Part shown: one piece after another, positions 4,602-40,203 of the stretch | How positions within the stretch are numbered: position 1 is the first letter of the stretch | Layout of the letters: each line of letters begins with the position of its first letter | From: Candidatus Altimarinota bacterium | GTDB lineage: Bacteria; Patescibacteriota; Gracilibacteria; JBDHUY01 | Assembly: GCA_039809385.1 (NCBI GenBank) | Contig: JBDHUY010000009.1 | Location: forward strand, 1 to 64,000 | Direction: 5' to 3' | Length of the DNA: 64,000 nucleotides | Program-made: the position numbers and the translations under genes | Notes under the pieces: generated by a model | What the model saw: the letters and a program-made list of their open reading frames with translations, nothing else | The model's database searches: none | What the model was told of the DNA's origin: nothing

Positions 4602-4943
4602 CGTGTGAGCTTGCTCCTCGTAATTCGGAAAGGATACGATGCAAATGTTGATTTAATACACGTATACTTAGATTCTCAGTAGTGCTCTTGGAATAAATGG
4701 TGATTGGTACAAGCACCTGCGCAAGCTGCACCACTAAAATAATCATCCGAAAACCGCCGCTTTTTCCCTTGTGAAGCGATTTGGTTGTCAGTCAGATTTT
4801 ATAAGGTTTTTACCGAGATGAATGCTCCTGGTAGGCTGAAACTTCTCGAGTGTTTTAATAATGCTTTCTTTTAGTTCCGGATACTTTTTGGACAGCTTTT
4901 TGAGAGTTTTTTTGAAATGTGGCAGTAATACAATTTGGTACAT
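4582..4943 (-). pseudogene. RelE/HigB-like toxin pseudogene (1-nt deletion plus nonsense codon)
   Basis: Manual translation gives MYQIVLLPHFKKTLKKLSKKYPE...HLGKNL, then a frameshift, then YKI*LTTKSLHKGKSGGFRMII...IYSKS..ENLS. Absent from the ORF track. Confidence 0.75.
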
Positions 4944-4960
4944 CTTTTTCCTTTCAAGTA

Positions 4961-5299
4961 CTACAAATTGTCCAGTTGTTCTCTTATAGAAGGCTGTCTT
5001 TTCCCGGTGAATTTACAGGTAGTTACTTCGCTTATATTGTCGACGAGATTACTAAATTTTATCCATTCCGGATTGGTCTTCAGCAATTTTTGAGCAATAT
5101 CCCAATCGGGATCTCCAGTCAATACCTCTTCAATGATTACTTCCTCGTGATCCAGTTCTGCTTTTTTGCTATCGTTTTGCAGCTCTTTCTCGACCACTTT
5201 TTTGACAAATGTGCTCATATTTTTCAACCGTCTTCGCTTTGTGGCCCTTTCCAATAAAAATGCCTGTTTTTCATTCAGTGAAATAGTGATTTGTACCAT
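4961..5299 (-). CDS. Putative antitoxin with an N-terminal ribbon-helix-helix-like domain
   Basis: QITISLNEKQ..LLE.....MSTFVKKVVEKEL fits the RHH pattern. Lies directly upstream of the toxin remnant. Confidence 0.55.
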   Translation of the reverse strand: MVQITISLNEKQAFLLERATKRRRLKNMSTFVKKVVEKELQNDSKKAELDHEEVIIEEVLTGDPDWDIAQKLLKTNPEWIKFSNLVDNISEVTTCKFTGKRQPSIREQLDNL

Positions 5300-5369
5300 A
5301 AAGTTTGTAGAAGAAATAGAGCCCGAGTATAGTATTAAATATGATTTTGATCAATAGCTTTGATTCCGT

Positions 5370-5687
5370 ATGCTCTGGAAAACTCCGCCCCGTATAAAGG
5401 TCTACGAAGCGCTCGGATGTATTGCCGACGAGCGGATTACATATGATGAAGATACGGCTCGGGTACGCTCCTCAAGCGGAAACAAAACCTACTACGTGGC
5501 ATTTAACGAAGAGAAACAGGCGATCATGTGTAACGATAACGGCTCGTACTGGCAGGGATACTTCGGCTACCCGGCCATTGCTTTTCTGATGATACGGGGA
5601 ATAATTCCCTATACATCTGCCTTTGCCGATAATTTAGCTGGTATCGCGTGGAAAGATATTATTTTCTTATCATTATTGCTCCGATGA
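5370..5687 (+). CDS. Conserved hypothetical protein, possibly C-terminally truncated
   Basis: KVYEALG, SSSGNK and NDNGSYWQGYFGYPAIAFLM. Its stop overlaps the next ATG (ATGA). Confidence 0.6.
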   Translation: MLWKTPPRIKVYEALGCIADERITYDEDTARVRSSSGNKTYYVAFNEEKQAIMCNDNGSYWQGYFGYPAIAFLMIRGIIPYTSAFADNLAGIAWKDIIFLSLLLR

Positions 5688-6202
5688 GATTTCAAATTTC
5701 TCCCTTGAGGAAAACTGTATTCCTCCTTTGTGTCCGCCTGATTTTGGCTGAATGCGCGACACTTCTGTTATTCTTTGGCACTAAGGGAATTTTGAGTTTT
5801 GGGACTATTGGATTAAATTTAGATTTCAATGAAAGCATAGCGATTATATTAGCCGAAAGTACTCTAAGCATCGCCCAGCTGATTGTGATTTTATTGATTG
5901 TACTCCAATGGTCACACGAGAGCTATCAACTGATCGGAAATGAGATTGTCTACCAGAAGGGAATATTCCGACGCAAAGAGCGCCGATACTCTTTGACAAA
6001 TGTTGAATCCATTGAGCTAGTACAACATATCAACGGAAGAATCTTTGGTTTTGGTACGTTAATTATCTACAGCCCGACACTCAAACAAGAGTTGATTATT
6101 CGGGATATACCAGCACCAGAAATGTTCACGGATCAAATCTTTGAAGTCCTCTCGCCGGAAACAAAATCAAAAGTATATGTCCAGCGAAGTAATAGGCGTT
6201 AA
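5684..6202 (+). CDS. Membrane protein with bacterial PH (bPH_2) domain
   Basis: Two TM helices, then Y......I....GIF...ERR..L..V.SI...Q...GRIFGFGTLII and IRDIP.PE. Confidence 0.75.
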   Translation: MRFQISPLRKTVFLLCVRLILAECATLLLFFGTKGILSFGTIGLNLDFNESIAIILAESTLSIAQLIVILLIVLQWSHESYQLIGNEIVYQKGIFRRKERRYSLTNVESIELVQHINGRIFGFGTLIIYSPTLKQELIIRDIPAPEMFTDQIFEVLSPETKSKVYVQRSNRR

Positions 6203-6370
6203 TACAGTTCCTAGTCACTCCAGCTTATTGTAAGTATATGGGCAATTATGCCAGAATAGCCCGGGATACGATGTACTATTGAGCTAGCTAAACTGAGGGA
6301 AAAAGACTCTTCCTCCCAGCGGGTACTAAAGCACCCCGATCTGTGGTATACTGATACGATACTTTTTTCC

Positions 6371-7528
6371 ATGCGCACCACCCTTGTCGTAAATCTCGGA
6401 TCATCTTCGGTCAAATACAAGCTTTTTAAAGGCAGAAACGAGCAGGCGGTTTCGTCTGGTGTGATCGACCGGATCAGTACAGCTCCGCAAGCACGTTTAG
6501 ACAATACGATCATGGAGCTTCCGATTCATAACCACGCTGAGGCCTTGGAATGGCTGAAAGCTTATTTTTTGAATAAAAGAATTATACAAAATGAACAAGA
6601 GGTAGACACAACCATTCATCGAGTTGTGCACGGAGGTGAATATTTCCAGGAACCCGTTCTGGTTGACAACAAGATTTTACAAAAGATCAGGAAACTTTTC
6701 CCGCTTTCGCCTTTGCATAATCCGATCAACTATGCCGGGATACGCACCGTCCAAAAATTGTTCCCCGAGAGCCGTCATGCGGCAGTATTCGATACCGCTT
6801 TTTACGACTCGATTCCAAAAAAAGCCTACCTCTACGGCATACCGTACAAGTACTATCAGCGCTATGGAATAAGGAAATACGGCTTTCACGGGATCAGTCA
6901 TCGCTATATGGGAACCGAAGTGGCCCGGATAATGAAGCAAAAACAGTTACGACATATTTCGTGCCATCTGGGAAACGGCTCATCGATTACAGCGATAAAG
7001 AACGGGAAAGCCATCGATACGACCATGGGGTTTACACCTTTGCAAGGGCTGATCATGGGTACCCGCTCGGGCAGTATCGATCCGGCGATCATCCCTTTTT
7101 TGGAAAAAAAAGAAAAACTGTCTGCTACCCGCATCAATACGATTTTGAACGAACAATCGGGTATATTGGGTTTTTCGGGCATCAGCAGCGACGTGCGAGA
7201 TATCTATACCTTCGTCAAACAGGGAGACGTCCGCGCAAAACTGACCCTGGATATCCTGTCCTATCAGATTACTCAGTTTATCGGACAAATGATCGGCATC
7301 TTGGGAGGTGTCGATGTCATTTCGTTTACGGGGGGCGTCGGACAAAACGCTTTTTATATCCGTTCTGCGGCGCTAAAACCTTTGAACCATATGGGAATAA
7401 TCTTGGACGAATCCAAGAACCGGGCAAATAAAAGCGTTATTTCTGCAAGCGGCTCCTCCACCCGGGTCATGGTATTGGCAACCGACGAAGAACTTGAAAT
7501 GTTTCGGGAATCTCGTGATCTGCTCTAA
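6371..7528 (+). CDS. ackA: Acetate kinase
   Basis: LVVNLGSSSVKY, HRVVHGG, PLHNP, FDTAF, YGFHG, HLGNGSS, TMGFTP and TDEEL. Confidence 0.97.
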   Translation: MRTTLVVNLGSSSVKYKLFKGRNEQAVSSGVIDRISTAPQARLDNTIMELPIHNHAEALEWLKAYFLNKRIIQNEQEVDTTIHRVVHGGEYFQEPVLVDNKILQKIRKLFPLSPLHNPINYAGIRTVQKLFPESRHAAVFDTAFYDSIPKKAYLYGIPYKYYQRYGIRKYGFHGISHRYMGTEVARIMKQKQLRHISCHLGNGSSITAIKNGKAIDTTMGFTPLQGLIMGTRSGSIDPAIIPFLEKKEKLSATRINTILNEQSGILGFSGISSDVRDIYTFVKQGDVRAKLTLDILSYQITQFIGQMIGILGGVDVISFTGGVGQNAFYIRSAALKPLNHMGIILDESKNRANKSVISASGSSTRVMVLATDEELEMFRESRDLL

Positions 7529-7562
7529 AAAAGCAAGAAGTCTCCATTTGAAGCAATTTCCC

Positions 7563-7590
7563 TTGAAAAGCAAAAGCGAGCTGCTATAGT
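7563..7590 (+). promoter_or_regulatory. Putative sigma70 promoter for tRNA-Asp
   Basis: TTGAAA ... TGcTATAGT (extended -10) about 23 nt upstream of the tRNA. Confidence 0.5.
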
Positions 7591-7612
7591 GGGAGAGCGT
7601 TAAAATTCCCAA

Positions 7613-7689
7613 GGGGTGGTAGTTCAGCTGGTTAGAACGCCGCACTGTCACTGCGGAGGTCGCGGGTTCGAGTCCCGTCCATCCCGCCA
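7613..7689 (+). tRNA. tRNA-Asp(GTC)
   Basis: Cloverleaf: acceptor GGGGTGG/CCATCCC, D arm GTTC/GAAC, anticodon arm CCGCA-CTGTCAC-TGCGG, T loop TTCGAGT, encoded CCA. Confidence 0.97.
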
Positions 7690-7836
7690 TTATCGGCCGA
7701 TTTGAATCTATACGAGCAAGATTCTAGTGTTTTTAATAGTGTCTGCAAAGAGACTCGAAGCCGACCCGAGCGCCGAACCGGTGAGGAAAAAAGCGAGGGC
7801 GGCCGGCTGCGGAGGAGCCGCAAGGCGGGGGAGCAG

Positions 7837-7856
7837 GAGTCCCGTCCATCCCGCCA
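7837..7856 (+). repeat. Exact 20-bp duplication of the tRNA-Asp 3' end (att-like)
   Basis: GAGTCCCGTCCATCCCGCCA at 7670-7689 and 7837-7856. Confidence 0.9.
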
Positions 7857-7983
7857 CGTCGTTCATGAATGACGTGGCACGCCATCCTTTCATTGCAATT
7901 TTTACAGGTTGCTTTTTTTCTCTATAATTTAAGCCTATACTAAGCCTGATCACGTTTAGTTATTTTTTAGAGTTATTCTTCTC

Positions 7984-8619
7984 ATGCATATCACCAAATT
8001 CGGACATTCGTGCCTATTCATCGAAGAGCAGGGCTGTCATATTCTGTTAGACCCGGGTGTGTATTCTGTACTCCCTGAAACGTTGCCGAGCATCGACGTA
8101 CTCCTGATTACGCACGAACATCAGGATCATCTGGATCTTACAAGCATTAAACGCATTGTTACCGAAAATCCTCAGATTCGGATATACAGTAATGAAACGG
8201 TCGTTGAAGTGCTGAAAAAAGAAACCATCGAGGCTCGCGCGCTCCAGCACGGGGAAACCGTTACGGAAAAAAATATACCTATCGAAGCATTCGGGCAACA
8301 ACATGCGCTGATTCACAGTTCGATCCCACTCATTCAAAACCGCGGCTTTCTGATTGCCGACCGGCTGTTTTACCCCGGAGACGCGCTTGTACTCCCGAAC
8401 CGTCCCATCGAGCTCTTGGCCTGGCCGAGCTTCGCGCCCTGGATGAGAATCCATGAGGCTTTGGACTATGCGGTGGCGGTAAAGCCGAAAACCTGTTTTC
8501 CGGTACATGACGGCATGTTGAAAAATCCCGCATTTCTGCATCCGCTGATTGGAAAAATCCTGTCCGAAAACGACATTGAGTTCAAACCGCTCGTTCCGGC
8601 AGAAAGAACCGAAATGTAA
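7984..8619 (+). CDS. MBL-fold metallo-hydrolase (UPF0173/UlaG-like)
   Basis: GHSC, LLDP, THEHQDH, GDA and PVH. Confidence 0.85.
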   Translation: MHITKFGHSCLFIEEQGCHILLDPGVYSVLPETLPSIDVLLITHEHQDHLDLTSIKRIVTENPQIRIYSNETVVEVLKKETIEARALQHGETVTEKNIPIEAFGQQHALIHSSIPLIQNRGFLIADRLFYPGDALVLPNRPIELLAWPSFAPWMRIHEALDYAVAVKPKTCFPVHDGMLKNPAFLHPLIGKILSENDIEFKPLVPAERTEM

Positions 8620-33104: not shown

Positions 33105-33557
33105 AGAAGTAATTTGGGTAACAAAATAAGAAAGCCAATAATTTACATAGGCGGAAGATACGTTATCAAAAGGCAAAAACGAATGCAAGATTTTTTTAAA
33201 TTTAGCGGTTAGTACATAGCGGCTAGCAGACAGTCTGTTGTTATTATCGTCATGGCGCAGCAGAAGATAGCCAAATTATGGCATTGTAGCAACTTTCCAG
33301 GCTGACCGCTCATCGCTCGTCGCTAGCCGCTCATCGCAACCTGCCTTTTTCACCAGATTTTATCTTTTCCTCATTATTGTACGAATAGGATAGAACTCGA
33401 TAGTGTATCTTTCCTTTCGAAATGGATACGACCAAAAAGCTAAAAAAAGTCGAGACGTGATGATTTTATGTCGTTTGAAAAATTAAAGAAAATTTTATAT
33501 CTATACTCTATAGATCATATATACTATTGGTATTTTACATTTAAAACAAATATACCA

Positions 33558-34496
33558 ATGTCATCAACCATGCGGTACCTTGCGGGAATTTTGTTTTTCA
33601 GCGTATTGCTGGGAATACCGGCTGCTTCATCGGAAAACAACTGCCGCTCCTACCCGATTGATTGTTGGGGTTCTATAAACGGGATTTCCTGCGGACAGGT
33701 GGGAGTATCCGAATATTGCGGGTACGAGCAATTCACGGCCTGCCCGGCAAAGTATCCCGCGTGCTATTACACCGGACCAGACCCCCAATGTCTGGAGAAT
33801 TGTGAGAAAGACCATATTCCGCCCCACATCATAGCGATCCCTCCAGCTCTCAATGTTACGATTCCCAATTTCATACATGTGATACTTACTCTCCGGGATG
33901 AGAATATGCGGGTTGCTCGGGGGCGATATATGATTGACGGCCTCGCAGATACCAGGAAGGGGTTGTATTTCGAAGAAAGTACGGTGATTACGATTGTCGC
34001 ACCCGGGCATCATTTCATATCGGTATGGGCGACAGATGATGCCGGGAATACTCAAACAGCGGTTTTTGGCCCCTACCGGATAAACACCGAAACGGACGGA
34101 AACAGCAATCAGAATATCAGCCCGCAGATAGTTGAATGCCCTTATTCCATGGATGCTCCCGAAACCATCAGATCGGGTACGGTACTTGCATGGCTGAGAC
34201 TCTGCGGCCCCTCTTTTGAAAAATTATTAGAAGAGAAAGAAGTGGCGACGGGACCGATCTTACTTACCGACTCTTTTGATAGAATCGTGTCTAGCGCAAA
34301 GCTGCCGAGCCAACATAGCTGGACACCGACCGAACCGAGCGGCAATATTCAAACGAAACTCCGCGAGATGCTCCAGAAAAAGGTTTGTGCACTTGCTGAC
34401 AAAGAATTTCCCATAGACTTATTGCTCACAACCTATCATCTGGAGGGCTTTCCATTTTTTATCATGTCAGATTGCCCGATGATATATAAAGAATAG
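33558..34496 (+). CDS. Secreted Cys-rich protein A: signal peptide, Cys-rich head, Ig-like (D..GN) domain, 4-Cys helical domain
   Basis: Signal peptide MRYLAGILFFSVLLGIPAAS; two domains clearly paralogous to the downstream ORFs. Confidence 0.8.
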   Translation: MSSTMRYLAGILFFSVLLGIPAASSENNCRSYPIDCWGSINGISCGQVGVSEYCGYEQFTACPAKYPACYYTGPDPQCLENCEKDHIPPHIIAIPPALNVTIPNFIHVILTLRDENMRVARGRYMIDGLADTRKGLYFEESTVITIVAPGHHFISVWATDDAGNTQTAVFGPYRINTETDGNSNQNISPQIVECPYSMDAPETIRSGTVLAWLRLCGPSFEKLLEEKEVATGPILLTDSFDRIVSSAKLPSQHSWTPTEPSGNIQTKLREMLQKKVCALADKEFPIDLLLTTYHLEGFPFFIMSDCPMIYKE

Positions 34497-34581
34497 ACCC
34501 GCTATTTCAAAACACCGTTATAGTACTCTTTACTTTTATAGTTGAAGCAACATTCTTTCTATTTGTTCCATAGAAAAATTA

Positions 34582-34590
34582 TGTTATAAT
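34582..34590 (+). promoter_or_regulatory. Extended -10 promoter element
   Basis: TGTTATAAT 35 nt before ATG 34626. Confidence 0.5.
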
Positions 34591-34625
34591 AAAAATGCAT
34601 TCTGAAAAAATAAACAAAAAATACC

Positions 34626-36866
34626 ATGGACTTATCATCTTGCCAGTTGAAAAAATACGATTTTCAACTATTGCCCCTCATCTTAGGTATAATCGTGGCA
34701 GCCAGTTTTTTCCTTATGGGAAGTCCCGTACACGCGGCCGTACGTGGAGGATATTGCGGCGACGGAGTATGTGATTCGACAACTGAAAGCAGTAGTACGT
34801 GTTCAGCAGATTGCGGCGCCAGCACGACAATCACTTATGGTGCTTATTATTGCGATACAACGACTTACCAGTGTTCTACAAAAAAATGTATAAGCGGAAC
34901 AACCGGCTGTTATAGTGATGCGACTACTTGCGCCAATAATTGCAAAGCTCCCGCAACGTACGGTTATACCTGTAATACCTCTACCTATCAATGTTCCTCT
35001 TGCGTCATCGGTACTGCAGGTTGTAACTACTCCGATCTAACATCCTGTCAATCAGGCTGTCAAGCTCCTACCAGATATGGCTATGCCTGTAATACCTCTA
35101 CTTATCAATGTTCTTCCTGCGTCATCGGTACTGCAGGTTGTAACTACTCCGATCTAACATCCTGTCAATCCGGATGCCAGGCTCCTACGAAGTACGGCTA
35201 TACCTGTAACACCTCTACGTATCAATGTTCTTCCTGCGTCATCGGTACTGCTGGCTGCTCCTTCTCTGACCTCACTTCGTGTCAATCAGGCTGCCAAAAT
35301 ACAAATACAATCCAATTATCGAGTATCAGTCCCAGTAGTGGACTCGCCGGTACGATCGTTGGGATTACCAGTGGAAACAGTGGCTTTACCAGTACGGGCA
35401 ATATCGTATATCTCAGAAATACTTCAACCGGAAACACCACAAGCATCACGAATACTACGGCGCTCAGTTCGTTAAAAACAGGAGATGCGGCAGCCTTGGC
35501 ATTCTTATCAGGTCCGTTCGCGATAGCACAAACCGAAGCGGCGGGAGGGTATAATATATTGAGATTTACAATTCCTTCCGGATTACCGAACGGTTTATAC
35601 GACCTTACCGTAAAGAACGGAGCGGGAGAAGACAGCATAGATCCCCCGCTGCAATTTAGTATTTCCAATGACTCGACACCTCCCGACATAACGGCAGCTC
35701 CGAGCAGCGCCAACTCCAATAGCCCGATAAGCGTACTGCTTCAGGCGAGCGATACAGGCGGGTCAGGTCTTTTGGAAGCACGCTATATGCTCGACGCGGC
35801 AGCAGGAGACGGAGTAGGTTTTACATTTACTGCCAGCACGACCGTAACCATCAACCGCACGACATCCCAGCCGAGCGAGACACATTACATTTCTGTATGG
35901 GCGCGTGACAATGCCGGAAATACTTTCAGCCATACGTTTCAGCCATTCACGATCACCACCACGAACAGCAATACCAATGCATCCAACAGCAATCAAAACA
36001 ACAGTATTTCTGGTATTGATATAGGGAGTTGTATTTATACGCTTGATCAAGCTAAAGTTCAAAGTGGTACGCTTTTCAATTGGCTGAGGGATTGCGGACC
36101 GGCATATAAACAGTTGTTAGCCAACCGTAACGTGCCGATACAAGTCGATTTGACCGCACCGTTCGATACGATAGTTTCTGCTGTATCTATCCCACAATTA
36201 TACGGCTGGGTGCCAACTTATAGCGGCGGAAATATTCAAAACACCATCGGCGAAGAACTACAACGTTCGGTATGTACGCTAACCGCCCAAGGCGTCCCCT
36301 TTTCTACGCTGGTGACCAGTTATCATCTGAATGATTTGCCGTTTCCACTTAGTAACAGCTGTAGCGGAAGTGGCGGCGGGAACGGTAACGCAAACGGCAC
36401 CGGCGGCGGGACAAGCTTGGACCAGATCCGTCCATGGGTGAATGTCAATGTTACTCAGGTGATCAATCGACCAAGATCAACAATCGTCCGATTAACGGCC
36501 AAAGACAATGTCGGCGGGAGCGGAATCCAGGACGCGGCGTATGAGATCAATACTCCTGTTTCATCTTCCACTGCGTCGAATAAACACTTTACCGATACGA
36601 TCAACGCGGCAATTCCCGATGGTGGAACGCTTCACTGGTATGCCAAAGACAAGGCCGGGAACGAAGCACGGGGAACGTTTACTCCCAATAGTAGCGGTTC
36701 AACCGAACCACCCATTGTTATAACGGATCCCGGGGGTACAACCCGTCAGTGCGAAACAAATACGATCTGTATTCCCCATCCCCTTTGTTCAGTAGATACG
36801 GGGGGAGTTCCTTGCCCGCCTCCCATGTGTAACACAACTACCGTGTGTGTTCCGGTACAGAACTGA
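34626..36866 (+). CDS. Secreted Cys-rich modular surface protein B (746 aa)
   Basis: Signal peptide ending VHA; CGDGVC module; Cys repeats; IPT/TIG-like domain; two Ig-like D.AGN domains; C-terminal six-Cys module. Confidence 0.88.
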   Translation: MDLSSCQLKKYDFQLLPLILGIIVAASFFLMGSPVHAAVRGGYCGDGVCDSTTESSSTCSADCGASTTITYGAYYCDTTTYQCSTKKCISGTTGCYSDATTCANNCKAPATYGYTCNTSTYQCSSCVIGTAGCNYSDLTSCQSGCQAPTRYGYACNTSTYQCSSCVIGTAGCNYSDLTSCQSGCQAPTKYGYTCNTSTYQCSSCVIGTAGCSFSDLTSCQSGCQNTNTIQLSSISPSSGLAGTIVGITSGNSGFTSTGNIVYLRNTSTGNTTSITNTTALSSLKTGDAAALAFLSGPFAIAQTEAAGGYNILRFTIPSGLPNGLYDLTVKNGAGEDSIDPPLQFSISNDSTPPDITAAPSSANSNSPISVLLQASDTGGSGLLEARYMLDAAAGDGVGFTFTASTTVTINRTTSQPSETHYISVWARDNAGNTFSHTFQPFTITTTNSNTNASNSNQNNSISGIDIGSCIYTLDQAKVQSGTLFNWLRDCGPAYKQLLANRNVPIQVDLTAPFDTIVSAVSIPQLYGWVPTYSGGNIQNTIGEELQRSVCTLTAQGVPFSTLVTSYHLNDLPFPLSNSCSGSGGGNGNANGTGGGTSLDQIRPWVNVNVTQVINRPRSTIVRLTAKDNVGGSGIQDAAYEINTPVSSSTASNKHFTDTINAAIPDGGTLHWYAKDKAGNEARGTFTPNSSGSTEPPIVITDPGGTTRQCETNTICIPHPLCSVDTGGVPCPPPMCNTTTVCVPVQN
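34959..35298 (+). repeat. Three tandem 117-bp (39-aa) intragenic repeats
   Basis: Units start at 34959, 35076 and 35193 and encode YGYxCNTSTYQCSSCVIGTAGCxxSDLTSCQSGCQ. Confidence 0.95.
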
Positions 36867-36924
36867 TGTACATAATAAACCCGATTCATAGCTATTTTTC
36901 TTTAACCATCAACTCTGCTCATCC

Positions 36925-39900
36925 ATGTCTACCAAATACAAAATCGCCATATTGTTAGGATACGTCTGGGCTATGAGTATCATACCAAATGCTTTGGGGT
37001 TCACAGGAATGATCAATCCAGACTACAATCCGACTACTCCTGGTATAAATACCGAAATAGGAAGTATTAATACTACCGCAGGTGGAACAAAATTTGGATT
37101 CCAAGGAAACAGCTATAATGCAAACTATGTAGGTGAATGCAGTAGTATGACGTGTCCTTGTGATCCAGACGAAGTCACTGCACAAACCTGCGAACACCAA
37201 GATAGTGTCCTCGAATGCAACGGCGGCGGCGGTACAGTCCGGATCAATGATGGTAATCACGGGACATCGGTTATCTGCGATTCAGGGGTACACAGTTTAG
37301 GGATGATCAATTCGAGTTTTTGCGGAGACGGAATATGTATCGATGGTGAGGCTTGCTTGCTGGATTGCGGTGAGAGCGGGGGTAACAGTGGGGAAACATT
37401 TTGCCCATACTACGCGTCTTCTTTGAAGGATTGCGGTGAGAGCGGGGGTAACAGTACATCATCTACCTTTTTAAGTATAACCTCCATCACACCTGACTCC
37501 GCCAGTAGTGGAAGCAGTATACTCATCAACGGAACTGGATTTAGCGCTGCAGGGAATATCGTTTCTTTTAGCAATCGTACCACCCGGGGATCGACCACAC
37601 AGCTGCAAACGCAGGCCAGCAAAAGACCTCCTCGAGCCAACGACTACAACATCCTTAGTCTGACCGTACCCGCCAATCTGAGCGGGCTGTATGATGTATC
37701 GGTAAGAAATAGCACCGGAGAGGTAAGCAATACGTTAGTCTTTTTGGTACCCTCTTCCGGAACTCAAACAACAAATACAGACACTGCCAATAGCAATATA
37801 TCCCCACCACCAGGTACCAATTTCGCTATTACTGATCTCACCCCTTCTCAAGCCAACGCGAGTTCCAATATTCTCGTTACCGGAAACAGATTTACCGGAA
37901 GCGATAACACGTTCTTTCTCAGAAACCTCCAAACCGGCCAGACCTTTACCATCCGCAATGCCAGCGGATCAAATCCGATCACGTCATGGCTCGACGCCCC
38001 AGAGGAAACAAACAGATTATTTTCCTGGCTAATTCCTCAGGCCGAAGCGGTTGAATTTATCCCTGGGGGTGCGAGTAGTGGTGGGATCAGCGCGAATACC
38101 GGCGGAGGCGGCAGTATCGGAATTGGGCCGGGAGGGAACGATATTATTATCATCTGTGGAGGACCGGGAGGAACGTATGAAACAACCGGATCGCTCGAGG
38201 AAAATCCTTGTGGCGGGGGAGAACAAATCATCGATATTATCGACCGTCCGTTCGTTGAAGGGTATTGTGGTGATGGAATGTGTACCCCTCTGCTAGGGGA
38301 AAGTACCCAGACATGCCCAGTTGATTGCGGCGGCGGGACCTGCATTGACACAAACTGGAGCCCCAGCGCGGGCAATGTATGCAGCGGCGTATCCTTTCTT
38401 CAGACCAGTAACTGTTCGAACACGAGAACAGAAATAGGAACCAAGACGTGTGCCGGCAGCTGTACCGTTTCTGCATGGAGCCCGGATGCATCCACCATCT
38501 GCAGCGGTCAAAGCTTTGTGCAATGCGCTACTACCCAAGGTCCTTTTGCTCATGTTTGGTGTCAAAGTCAAAGCTTTGTGCAAAGCAGCAATTGCGGTAC
38601 TACCAGAACCGTGAATGGAACAAAAAACTGCAGCTCGAATACAACGCTTTATAGCAATGCTGCATTTGTCATACCTTCCACAGCACAACCCGGTACCTAT
38701 GAAGTGACAGCACAAAACGGCTTGGGACAAGTAAGCAACCCCCTTCAATTTACCATTCCTGGCAGCGCAACTCCGCCACCAAGCATCTGTACGAAAACCG
38801 GAGGCAATGTCTACGGTATCGCCTACGGTCAGGATGCTGGTCCTCTGTATTTCCAGCCTTCCGATGCGGCAAACGCGCATCCAGCACTGTGTATCGATTT
38901 TGGAGTAACGATTAACCCGGACAACTCAGTCAGCGGCACCAGTCTTAGTCCGTTTTACGGTACAATTGACTGGCATAACTCCCAGGTCACAAGCGGAAGT
39001 ACCTACTCCGTTTTCACCGGCAGTGTAGCACTAAGCAATTATTCGCTTAATCTGGGAAATACGACATCTCCGGATACGGATTGCGTTCCTGCCAATCTGA
39101 GTTTCCCGCCTAAAAAGGAAATTATCTGCATAGACGGAACCGGAAAGTTTTCGGGATGGATCAAGCACCCGACTACGTTCGGGTACATCAATTTCGACAA
39201 CGTAACGACCACCTGGAGACCGGCGGGTGGAGCAATCGCAGCTGGATCGTGCGATTTTGATCCGAACGATCAAACTAATAAACGCAACGGCGTGTACGTA
39301 TCCTGGCTGTTACAATGCGGTCATGCTTTTGGTACCTATCTCACCGGCAAAGGGATTTATGACAATACGACACTGGCCCTGTTGAATTTATCGTCTCCAA
39401 CTGAGATTAGTACCGAAAATTCCAAGATTGTCACAGAAAGTAGTAAACTTTCAGAAAATACCGTATCGACCCGAGGTGCAGGGATTGCCGGAATCGGCAA
39501 TGTAATCCGGTCTCTGACGCTGGGAGCAACGGCGCTGCCTTCGACGACACGGCAAAGTACCGCCACGTTTGCTACAGAGGGAACGATTGTACGACTGATG
39601 CGGGAAAAAATCGAAAGCTACCTTTGCCGAGCCGAAAACTCCGAGACAGCCAGACAACAGATACTGACCGATTTTCATATCTCCGGGAACCCGTTTTTCA
39701 TTCAAAATTCAAAGTGTCTGGGGGGAGCGGGATCGCAGGATTTGGAAGCCCCAGCGGTCAATATAACTCCCGTGGATATCGGCAGTTCTCAGATTACCCT
39801 GAAGCTCCATGCTGTAGACAATGTGGCGATCTCAGACGCTGCGTTTGATATCAACACAACCGCGTCTCAAAGCACGCCCTCTTCCAAGCATTTTAATCCG

Positions 39901-40203
39901 AACAAAAATGGAGTGATACTGGCACCGGGAGATGCGCTCTATTGGTGGGCACAAGATACTGCGGGGAATATTGGGGCCGGAGTAGCCGTGGCCCCTGGAG
40001 GAAGCGGAGGAAACAGCAATAGAAATATCAACGGAACTTTTCCGATTGGTGAAGTGGGAAACGAGTTACCACCTGAGAGACCTGGTTATGAACGCTGTTT
40101 ACCGACCAGAACATGCTACGAAATAGTATGCCGGGATATAGCATTCTGCCCTGACGGACCTCCACCACCTCAATGTGATATAACTTACACGTGTTCTCAG
40201 TAA
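36925..40203 (+). CDS. Secreted Cys-rich modular surface protein C (1092 aa)
   Basis: Signal peptide; two CGDG modules; two IPT/TIG-like domains; AYGQD beta domain; 4-Cys helical domain; Ig-like domain; C-terminal six-Cys module. Confidence 0.88.
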   Translation: MSTKYKIAILLGYVWAMSIIPNALGFTGMINPDYNPTTPGINTEIGSINTTAGGTKFGFQGNSYNANYVGECSSMTCPCDPDEVTAQTCEHQDSVLECNGGGGTVRINDGNHGTSVICDSGVHSLGMINSSFCGDGICIDGEACLLDCGESGGNSGETFCPYYASSLKDCGESGGNSTSSTFLSITSITPDSASSGSSILINGTGFSAAGNIVSFSNRTTRGSTTQLQTQASKRPPRANDYNILSLTVPANLSGLYDVSVRNSTGEVSNTLVFLVPSSGTQTTNTDTANSNISPPPGTNFAITDLTPSQANASSNILVTGNRFTGSDNTFFLRNLQTGQTFTIRNASGSNPITSWLDAPEETNRLFSWLIPQAEAVEFIPGGASSGGISANTGGGGSIGIGPGGNDIIIICGGPGGTYETTGSLEENPCGGGEQIIDIIDRPFVEGYCGDGMCTPLLGESTQTCPVDCGGGTCIDTNWSPSAGNVCSGVSFLQTSNCSNTRTEIGTKTCAGSCTVSAWSPDASTICSGQSFVQCATTQGPFAHVWCQSQSFVQSSNCGTTRTVNGTKNCSSNTTLYSNAAFVIPSTAQPGTYEVTAQNGLGQVSNPLQFTIPGSATPPPSICTKTGGNVYGIAYGQDAGPLYFQPSDAANAHPALCIDFGVTINPDNSVSGTSLSPFYGTIDWHNSQVTSGSTYSVFTGSVALSNYSLNLGNTTSPDTDCVPANLSFPPKKEIICIDGTGKFSGWIKHPTTFGYINFDNVTTTWRPAGGAIAAGSCDFDPNDQTNKRNGVYVSWLLQCGHAFGTYLTGKGIYDNTTLALLNLSSPTEISTENSKIVTESSKLSENTVSTRGAGIAGIGNVIRSLTLGATALPSTTRQSTATFATEGTIVRLMREKIESYLCRAENSETARQQILTDFHISGNPFFIQNSKCLGGAGSQDLEAPAVNITPVDIGSSQITLKLHAVDNVAISDAAFDINTTASQSTPSSKHFNPNKNGVILAPGDALYWWAQDTAGNIGAGVAVAPGGSGGNSNRNINGTFPIGEVGNELPPERPGYERCLPTRTCYEIVCRDIAFCPDGPPPPQCDITYTCSQ
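37362..37455 (+). repeat. Exact 28-bp direct repeat flanking a 38-bp unique insert
   Basis: GGATTGCGGTGAGAGCGGGGGTAACAGT at 37362-37389 and 37428-37455. Confidence 0.92.
38507..38583 (+). repeat. Exact 17-bp direct repeat flanking a 43-bp unique insert
   Basis: GTCAAAGCTTTGTGCAA at 38507-38523 and 38567-38583. Confidence 0.92.

Follow-up and report, generated by a model that had tools for sequence, protein, structure and literature searches.

Two micro-insertions of one build in a cysteine-rich protein gene of a Candidatus Altimarinota bacterium: possible off-target CRISPR integration

A gene for a cysteine-rich secreted or surface protein of an uncultured Candidatus Altimarinota bacterium with a small genome (GTDB lineage Patescibacteriota; Gracilibacteria; assembly GCA_039809385.1) contains two micro-insertions of the same build: a piece of ∼30 nucleotides (nt) unrelated to its surroundings, flanked by a target duplication of 36–38 nt, one copy of which is shortened. 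The gene, here called gene C, lies in the window that was analysed, i.e., the first 64,000 nt of contig JBDHUY010000009.1 (C9:1-64000); the genome comprises 1.87 Mb in 26 contigs and is 95% complete as judged by marker genes. The origin of the first insertion (event 1) can be traced base by base, as its apparent donor, its empty site and its junctions are all known. The likeliest cause of both insertions seems to be off-target integration of spacer-sized fragments by the bacterium's own type V-A Cas1-Cas2 integrase with Cas4, belonging to its CRISPR system, followed by slippage during gap filling; we put the probability of this somewhat below one half (∼0.45). The integrase would then twice have mis-inserted spacer-sized DNA, at least one piece coming from the chromosome of the bacterium itself or of a close relative, and the resulting units would have been kept as translated, cysteine-paired loops, an account that we hold at the same odds.

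Two Repeat-Insert-Repeat Units in Gene C

The gene in question is the following.

36925..40203, plus strand: gene C, an open reading frame (ORF) of 1092 amino acids (aa) taken from the ORF listing; Cys-rich secreted or surface protein, recipient of both insertions

In event 1, an exact 28-nt repeat (37362–37389 and 37428–37455) has a period of 66 nt, with 38 nt between the copies. In event 2, an exact 17-nt repeat (38507–38523 and 38567–38583) has a period of 60 nt, with 43 nt between. Both units lie inside the ORF of gene C, keep the frame and add two Cys residues each. A first-pass annotation of this DNA had reported the same repeats and coordinates, the conserved frame and the Cys pair per unit, and repeat and ORF analysis bears it out on all these points.

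The repeats are not due to chance: direct repeats of at least 17 nt with periods of 20–150 nt number 125 in the real genome, nearly all of them tandem arrays, while three genomes of the same size and dinucleotide composition simulated with a first-order Markov model yielded 0, 0, and 0. Nor are the units assembly artefacts, as contigs from other public sequencing runs show the same junctions with 0 differences.

Event 1: Empty Allele, Junctions, and Donor

Contigs of four public runs (X2, X5, X9, and X10) were aligned to gene C, and three of the runs cover the site of event 1. The insertion is present, with 0 differences, in X2 (same study as the likely source of this DNA; contig over 36900–37811) and in X5 (another study; contig over 37201–37447). 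A 415-nt contig from X9, a run of a third study, aligns to 37291–37397 and then to 37452–37759, so that 54 nt (37398–37451) are missing; no letters stand between the two parts, the joint is unambiguous, and there are 3 other differences in the 415 nt. In X10, the site has no contig coverage. Hence the insertion is present in two of the three covering runs and the site is empty in the third: event 1 is an insertion polymorphic between strains. Collapse of the repeat during assembly is an improbable source of the X9 joint, since the 28-nt copies are shorter than a 31-letter word and the 54-nt skip does not equal the 66-nt period. The first-pass annotation had named empty alleles as something that reads might reveal; the run contigs contain one for event 1 and none for event 2.

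Comparison with the empty allele yields three parts.

37362..37397, plus strand: full target copy, 36 nt; insertion point after 37397, where X9 joins 37397 to 37452
37398..37427, plus strand: captured piece, 30 nt; antisense of an intergenic spacer on contig C7 and of the start codon of the adjoining peptidase S51 gene
37428..37451, plus strand: shortened second target copy, 24 nt; copies 37362–37385, with the last 12 of the 36 nt missing

Relative to the empty allele, the 54 inserted nt are thus 30 captured and 24 copied ones, with the copied stretch starting 36 nt upstream of the insertion point. CAGT (37452–37455), with which the 28-nt repeat ends, already stands in the empty allele, so that the repeat consists of 24 copied nt plus these 4. 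The 12 nt missing from the second copy end in the same 4 nt as the adjoining flank. At the captured piece, microhomology is 0 nt at both junctions, CAGT being common only to the junction of the shortened copy. One of the two Cys residues added by event 1 derives from the duplicated target.

The blunt junctions, free of microhomology, are what would be expected if a stray fragment had been ligated into a staggered break, or inserted by way of some further nuclease or ligase, and the long overhangs had then been filled in. Eukaryotes are known to capture stray DNA at breaks, according to the accessible part of PMC2567098. Still, we regard such end-joining capture as quite improbable, as neither Ku (PF02735) nor an ATP-dependent ligase (PF01068) has a match in the genome, although at 95% completeness either gene, like one for RVT_1, could have been missed. 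Overhangs of 36–38 nt would also be required, and we know of no nuclease that leaves them, which counts further against this explanation.

A search of the 38-nt insert 1 against the genome (blastn-short) gave a single significant match, of nt 9–34 to C7:21165-21140 on the minus strand (25/26 identical, E = 2.5e-6). In a gapped alignment of 30 nt to the same place there are 28 matches, one mismatch, and one gap (score 48; the next best in the genome is 31). The donor stretch comprises, in antisense, the 22-nt spacer between clpP and the peptidase S51 gene and the first 11 nt of the latter. As the N-terminus of this Peptidase_S51 (Pfam) protein is conserved in all eight relatives fetched, it is the S51 gene start that is original, and gene C has received the copy. 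The first base of the match, 37398, is also the first base absent from the X9 contig, and two independent observations therefore point to one boundary.

When the whole genome was compared with itself by BLAST, the C7–C9 match was one of ∼10 single-copy ectopic matches of at least 43.7 bits, most of the others being, by eye, palindromic elements or paralogue motifs. Taken alone, it is borderline in such an all-against-all comparison; what gives it weight is the directed query, together with the coincidence of the match boundary with the indel boundary. To judge from this alignment, event 1 drew on a gene start in the bacterium's own genome or in that of a close relative. This modifies the first-pass annotation, which had proposed capture of short foreign DNA and had seen no source for either insert in the window: the piece was indeed captured from elsewhere, the site being empty in a sister strain, and its source does lie outside the window, but one exists (C7:21140-21165), and it appears to be self or near-self DNA rather than foreign.

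Two further observations concern these loci. The reverse complement of GTAGAT, with which the Cas12a repeat ends, occurs at 37460–37465; in the empty allele it stands 8 nt downstream of where the insertion went, and its presence may well be due to chance. On C7, upstream of clpP and ∼0.9 kb from the event 1 donor, there are ∼2.6 copies of a 104-nt unit, with 67 nt exact (about 2200–2520 of C7:18000-24000).

Event 2: Homologues and Geometry

Event 2 is carried with 0 differences by contigs of X2, X5, and X10; X9 has no contig at the site. It falls into a modular part of the protein and consists of three parts itself.

38338..38640, plus strand: two tandem Cys-rich modules of ∼37 aa each, C..W.P....C.G....Q.SNC...R...GTK.C; event 2 lies within the second
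38507..38535, plus strand: first target copy, 17 exact nt plus 12 nt (11/12 identical), 9 nt fewer than the second copy
38536..38566, plus strand: unrelated piece, 31 nt; its last 6 nt equal the first 6 nt of the next copy
38567..38604, plus strand: full target copy, 38 nt, as delimited by an anchored shuffle test and gapped alignment

Six shorter proteins, all of them from other organisms, match this part of gene C. Five (P0002–P0006) were aligned; the sixth, P0007, was omitted (E = 6e-4, 11% coverage). The five have modules in common with gene C, in tandem in every one of them, with invariant C, W, P, C, G, Q, SNC, R, GTK, and C, and all five lack the 20 residues of event 2; BLASTP alignments to P0002–P0004 have a 20-aa gap at the insert.

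Beginning 9 nt beyond the second repeat is a sequence that agrees with the first 12 nt of insert 2 at all but one position (11/12). In an anchored shuffle test, this match has P = 1.4e-4 (200,000 shuffles), and the other three of the four tests were not significant. Gapped alignment agrees that the duplication of event 2 spans 38 nt, the first copy having lost 9 nt. Insert 2 is therefore not wholly unrelated to its surroundings, as had been thought at first pass.

We found no donor for event 2: there was no significant match in the bacterium's own genome; with up to three mismatches allowed, 300 genomes of the class had no match besides the window itself; and viral, genome, and metagenome contigs, phages, and plasmids gave none in a search for exact matches only, which a donor with a single difference would escape. 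Thus, the sequence searches that the first-pass annotation had in mind for the inserts gave a source on C7 for insert 1 and none in the genome, phages, or other collections for insert 2. The 30-nt flank pattern expected of an empty allele of event 2 had 0 matches in metagenome contigs. The idea that both inserts are antisense gene starts was dropped, having been verified for event 1 only and resting on 14–17-nt matches for event 2.

The two events share a build. The captured pieces are 30 and 31 nt long, and the losses from one target copy are 12 nt in event 1 and 9 nt in event 2. The reconstructed original sizes are 66 and 69 nt, the present ones 54 and 60 nt, and both the original sizes and the losses are all multiples of three.

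Old tandem duplications with decayed middles would be another way to arrive at repeats around a unique stretch, and two details agree with them: in event 1, 6 of the 10 nt that precede the second copy agree with the flank of the first, and the Cys-to-Cys spacing of insert 2 is that of the last loop of the module. However, the repeats are exact, while the in-register identity of insert and flank is 0.45 and 0.18 in event 1 and 0.33 and 0.30 in event 2, and the anchored tests are not significant save for the 12 nt that are explained as target duplication. For event 1, decay is already refuted by the donor and the empty allele, and in general we give it hardly any credence. The low in-register identity and the shuffle tests agree with the first-pass annotation that these are insertions. 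The insertion site was duplicated, as had also been proposed there.

The CRISPR-Cas Locus and a Possible Mechanism

The genome encodes a candidate agent for insertions of this size.

C24:1-12238, at the contig end: type V-A CRISPR-Cas locus with array, Cas2-like ORF, Cas1, Cas4, PIF1-like helicase with WYL domain, NYN-domain protein, 1123-aa ORF, and Cas12a

The end of the array contains two exact 37-nt repeats with 27 nt between them, or 36 + 28 on the assumption that GTAGAT is the repeat's end, as it is in relatives. Cas1 was identified by PF01867 (183.9 bits, C24:577-1539), the Cas4 and Cas12a domains were detected as well, and the Cas2-like ORF (C24:∼300-575) was named by eye from its translation; the 1123-aa ORF (4767–8138, minus strand) has no Pfam family. 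Loci with the same repeat end were fetched from other genomes, and 18 of the 20 have at least two repeats. After one 195-nt period was dropped, these related arrays gave 208 periods below 90 nt with a median of 63 nt; the periods of related Cas12a arrays are 60–70 nt.

Adaptation in a type V-A system follows a ruler mechanism, prefers prespacers of 27–29 nt, recognizes the first bases of the repeat, and depends on Cas4 for a TTTN protospacer-adjacent motif (PAM), as described in the accessible text of PMC13034035. Off-target integration has been reported in E. coli overproducing Cas1-Cas2, and for two other species there is circumstantial evidence only, according to the available part of a source citing Nivala et al. 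(2018).

In gene C, the integrase would have joined the two 3' ends of a fragment to opposite target strands, about one repeat length apart as set by the ruler. Fill-in of the two single-stranded gaps would duplicate the stretch between the joins, and slippage while the gaps were being filled, or shortly afterwards, could remove 12 or 9 nt from one copy. Products may have been retained that kept the frame, were free of stops, and added an even number of Cys residues to a fast-changing Cys-rich surface protein. The part played by the integrase, the shortening by slippage, and the closing of disulfide loops by the Cys pairs are what we infer; the insertions themselves, the donor and empty allele of event 1, the geometry, and the presence of the cas genes are observed.

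The duplications span 36 and 38 nt, and the native repeat 36/37 nt; the captured pieces measure 30 and 31 nt, and the sole complete native spacer 27/28 nt. The likeness in size to a CRISPR repeat-spacer unit, which had been remarked on in the first-pass annotation, is thus closer than was noted there, and cas1, cas2, and cas4 are present. Read on the minus strand, the duplication of event 1 begins with GTTT like the native repeat, and the captured piece is turned with its PAM end towards the upstream copy, the arrangement found in a normal array. The duplication of event 2 starts with GTCAAA, preceded by GCG, where the native junction has GCT and then GTTTAA, a resemblance judged after the fact and with n = 2. 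On the donor side of event 1, TTTC stands directly 5' of the 26 matching nt, where a Cas12a PAM (TTTV) is expected; its chance probability is 0.126. In donor coordinates, the piece is then 29 nt long, i.e., three PAM bases plus 26. The junctions of event 1, being free of microhomology, fit the joining of a fragment better than primed copying. Moreover, it is the shortened copy whose synthesis would start from the flank as primer, and since the lost 12 nt end in the 4 nt of that flank, realignment of the primer should give exactly this product.

Several observations weigh against integration. Neither event left a clean repeat-spacer-repeat structure, and an additional loss of 12 or 9 nt has to be assumed for each. 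The pieces are 2–4 nt longer than typical or native spacers, and the duplication spans differ (36 vs. 38 nt). In related arrays, periods of at least 66 nt account for only 6 of 208, and those of at least 69 nt for 1 of 208. The likeness of the targets to a leader-repeat junction is weak and post hoc, and the geometry as a whole was derived after the data had been seen. In event 2, a PAM-like TTTG at one end of the piece opposes the orientation suggested by the start of the duplication. Within its 30 nt, the event 1 piece has one substitution and one extra base relative to the resident donor, more than would be expected from a strain divergence of ∼0.7%. Finally, the occurrence of two events in one gene and none elsewhere is left unexplained.

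Some of these features would be more natural if the insertions arose by template switching in replication or break repair, that is, by copy choice resembling break-induced replication mediated by microhomology (MMBIR) or fork stalling and template switching (FoSTeS). In a single event, a nascent strand would copy ∼30 nt ectopically, return 36–38 nt behind the point of its departure, and drop 12 or 9 nt in one more short jump, so that the shortened copies need no second event. An ectopic template is known for event 1 (C7:21140-21165). The junctions are complex, with CAGT common to one junction of event 1 and the 6-nt GTCAAA repeated at a junction of event 2, and error-prone synthesis is compatible with the substitution and extra base in the event 1 piece and with the single substitution in the 12-nt copy of event 2. 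From eukaryotes, templated insertions of such sizes are well known, as far as the available portions of PMC8421209 and PMC11724301 go. By contrast, microhomology is absent at both junctions of the event 1 piece, the donor is on a different contig, and no third such event was found in the genome; the 36- and 38-nt spans, the ∼30-nt pieces, the TTTC on the donor side, and the losses in multiples of three are not predicted. Template switching is in our opinion the foremost rival of off-target integration and only somewhat less likely than it.

Off-target integration resembles the "neo-CRISPR" loci formed by Cas1-Cas2 (Nivala, Shipman and Church, 2018; comparison limited to the accessible text) in that a spacer-sized insert lies outside an array, the target duplication is about one repeat long, the DNA may be self, and cas1 and cas2 are in the genome. 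Unlike those loci, the present events are natural, lie in frame within a translated gene, and are associated with a type V-A rather than a type I-E system; one copy is shortened, and the pieces exceed the native spacers by 2–4 nt. Type V-A adaptation in Francisella novicida, as given in the accessible part of PMC13034035, likewise has a 36-nt repeat, a second site set by a ruler, prespacers near 27–29 nt, and a TTTN PAM by the donor. However, the target here is no leader-repeat junction and shares with the repeat only the first bases (GT or GTTT), and event 1 retains three PAM bases. The templated insertions of MMBIR and of polymerase theta-mediated end joining are similar in their short ectopic template, local duplication, and complex junctions, but in the available portions of PMC8421209 and PMC11724301 they are mainly eukaryotic and expected to show microhomology, of which the event 1 captured piece has none.

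In word searches confined to open-access papers and preprints, we came across neither a naturally occurring off-target spacer insertion kept in frame inside a gene nor a bacterial ectopic templated insertion for which donor and empty site were documented. If the integrase was the agent, gene C would be a natural example of off-target CRISPR integration kept as coding sequence of a surface protein, and CRISPR integrases would, besides building immune memory, supply new protein-coding sequence in nature. If template switching was responsible instead, event 1 would still be a rare, well-documented ectopic templated insertion in a bacterium. The idea can be tested across genomes by comparing duplication lengths with the lengths of the resident CRISPR repeats.

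Occurrence in the Genome and the Case for a Diversification System

No third event of the same build was found in the 1.87 Mb by exact-repeat scans and a scan with a 36-nt window for periods of 50–84 nt, with 14 candidates inspected. The candidates were tandem or low-complexity coding repeats, repeats of tRNA fragments, and the CRISPR array. One of those considered as a capture, C16:8873-8938 in a minus-strand ORF (18-nt exact repeats, 30 nt between, period 48, in frame), was rejected, as its flank is identical in register at 12 of 20 positions and a decayed 48-nt tandem duplication is likelier. Each of the two inserts is single-copy in the genome, and the multiple copies expected of a transposable element or a miniature inverted-repeat transposable element are not there. 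The neighbouring Cys-rich paralogues contain no such event either, so no enrichment of the kind envisaged at first pass is seen among them.

That a Cys-rich gene from a cluster of three paralogues (33468–40203) has twice received an insertion with two Cys residues could suggest a dedicated system that recurrently diversifies Cys-rich secreted genes. Against this, there are only these two events genome-wide and none in the adjoining paralogues; the 95% complete genome has no RVT_1 match, and the ORF list contains no recombinase beside gene C. The donor of event 1 is the start of an ordinary housekeeping gene, and one of the event 1 Cys residues comes from the duplicated target. We therefore consider such a system very improbable. 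Of the genes that the first-pass annotation had linked to it (cas1-like, reverse transcriptase, or recombinase), cas1 is present, while RVT_1 and a neighbouring recombinase were not found. A standing diversification route comparable to diversity-generating retroelements, as proposed there, is also difficult to reconcile with two events in 1.87 Mb, no RVT_1, and one event merely polymorphic between strains. Those retroelements, too, change the sequence of a surface protein locally; but here no reverse transcriptase was found, there is no template/variable repeat pair, the region exists in one copy only, and sequence was inserted where those elements make adenine-directed substitutions.

The paired Cys residues look like the outcome of a selection filter and not like a property of the mechanism (n = 2), an even number of Cys being probably what an extracellular Cys-rich protein tolerates.

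Gene C, Its Neighbours, and Strain Variation

Gene C is the third of three adjoining Cys-rich ORFs (33468–34496, 34626–36866, and 36925–40203). A Pfam scan assigned no family to it, and among 7,999 scored candidates the only orthologue of similar length was gene C itself; weak partial matches occur in two of 40 genomes of relatives.

Runs X9 and X10 share nine differences from gene C between 37738 and 37968; X10 has event 2, and X9 is without event 1. If the two runs represent one lineage, event 2 would be the older, and event 1 would have followed the split of strains whose flanks differ by ∼0.7%. The differences shared by these runs of two studies include five consecutive base changes at 37898–37902 and single changes at 37780, 37878, 37956, and 37965; those around 37898–37902 amount to a strain variant of gene C in which a block has been replaced.

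Slippage is the usual explanation for short insertions in bacterial genes. The paralogue at 34626–36866 contains a tandem array (34959–35297) of a 117-nt unit in 2.9 copies with 86% identity, encoding Cys-rich modules of 39 aa, which means that plain slippage duplication is also at work in this gene cluster. Like the events in gene C, the array has in-frame direct repeats in a gene for a Cys-rich surface protein; there, however, the whole unit is repeated, whereas in gene C what lies between the repeats bears no relation to the flanks.

Elsewhere in the genome, partial copies of tRNA genes stand beside complete ones, with exact repeats of 17–25 nt (C11:24380-24530, C1:37557, and C20:25467), a pattern often left behind by integrating elements. 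Simple repeats of heptamers resembling AGTCAAA occur at the contig ends C10:72933, C14:1, C19:28262, and C22:1, and internally at C11:17355 and C4:127552; they have probably caused assembly breaks.

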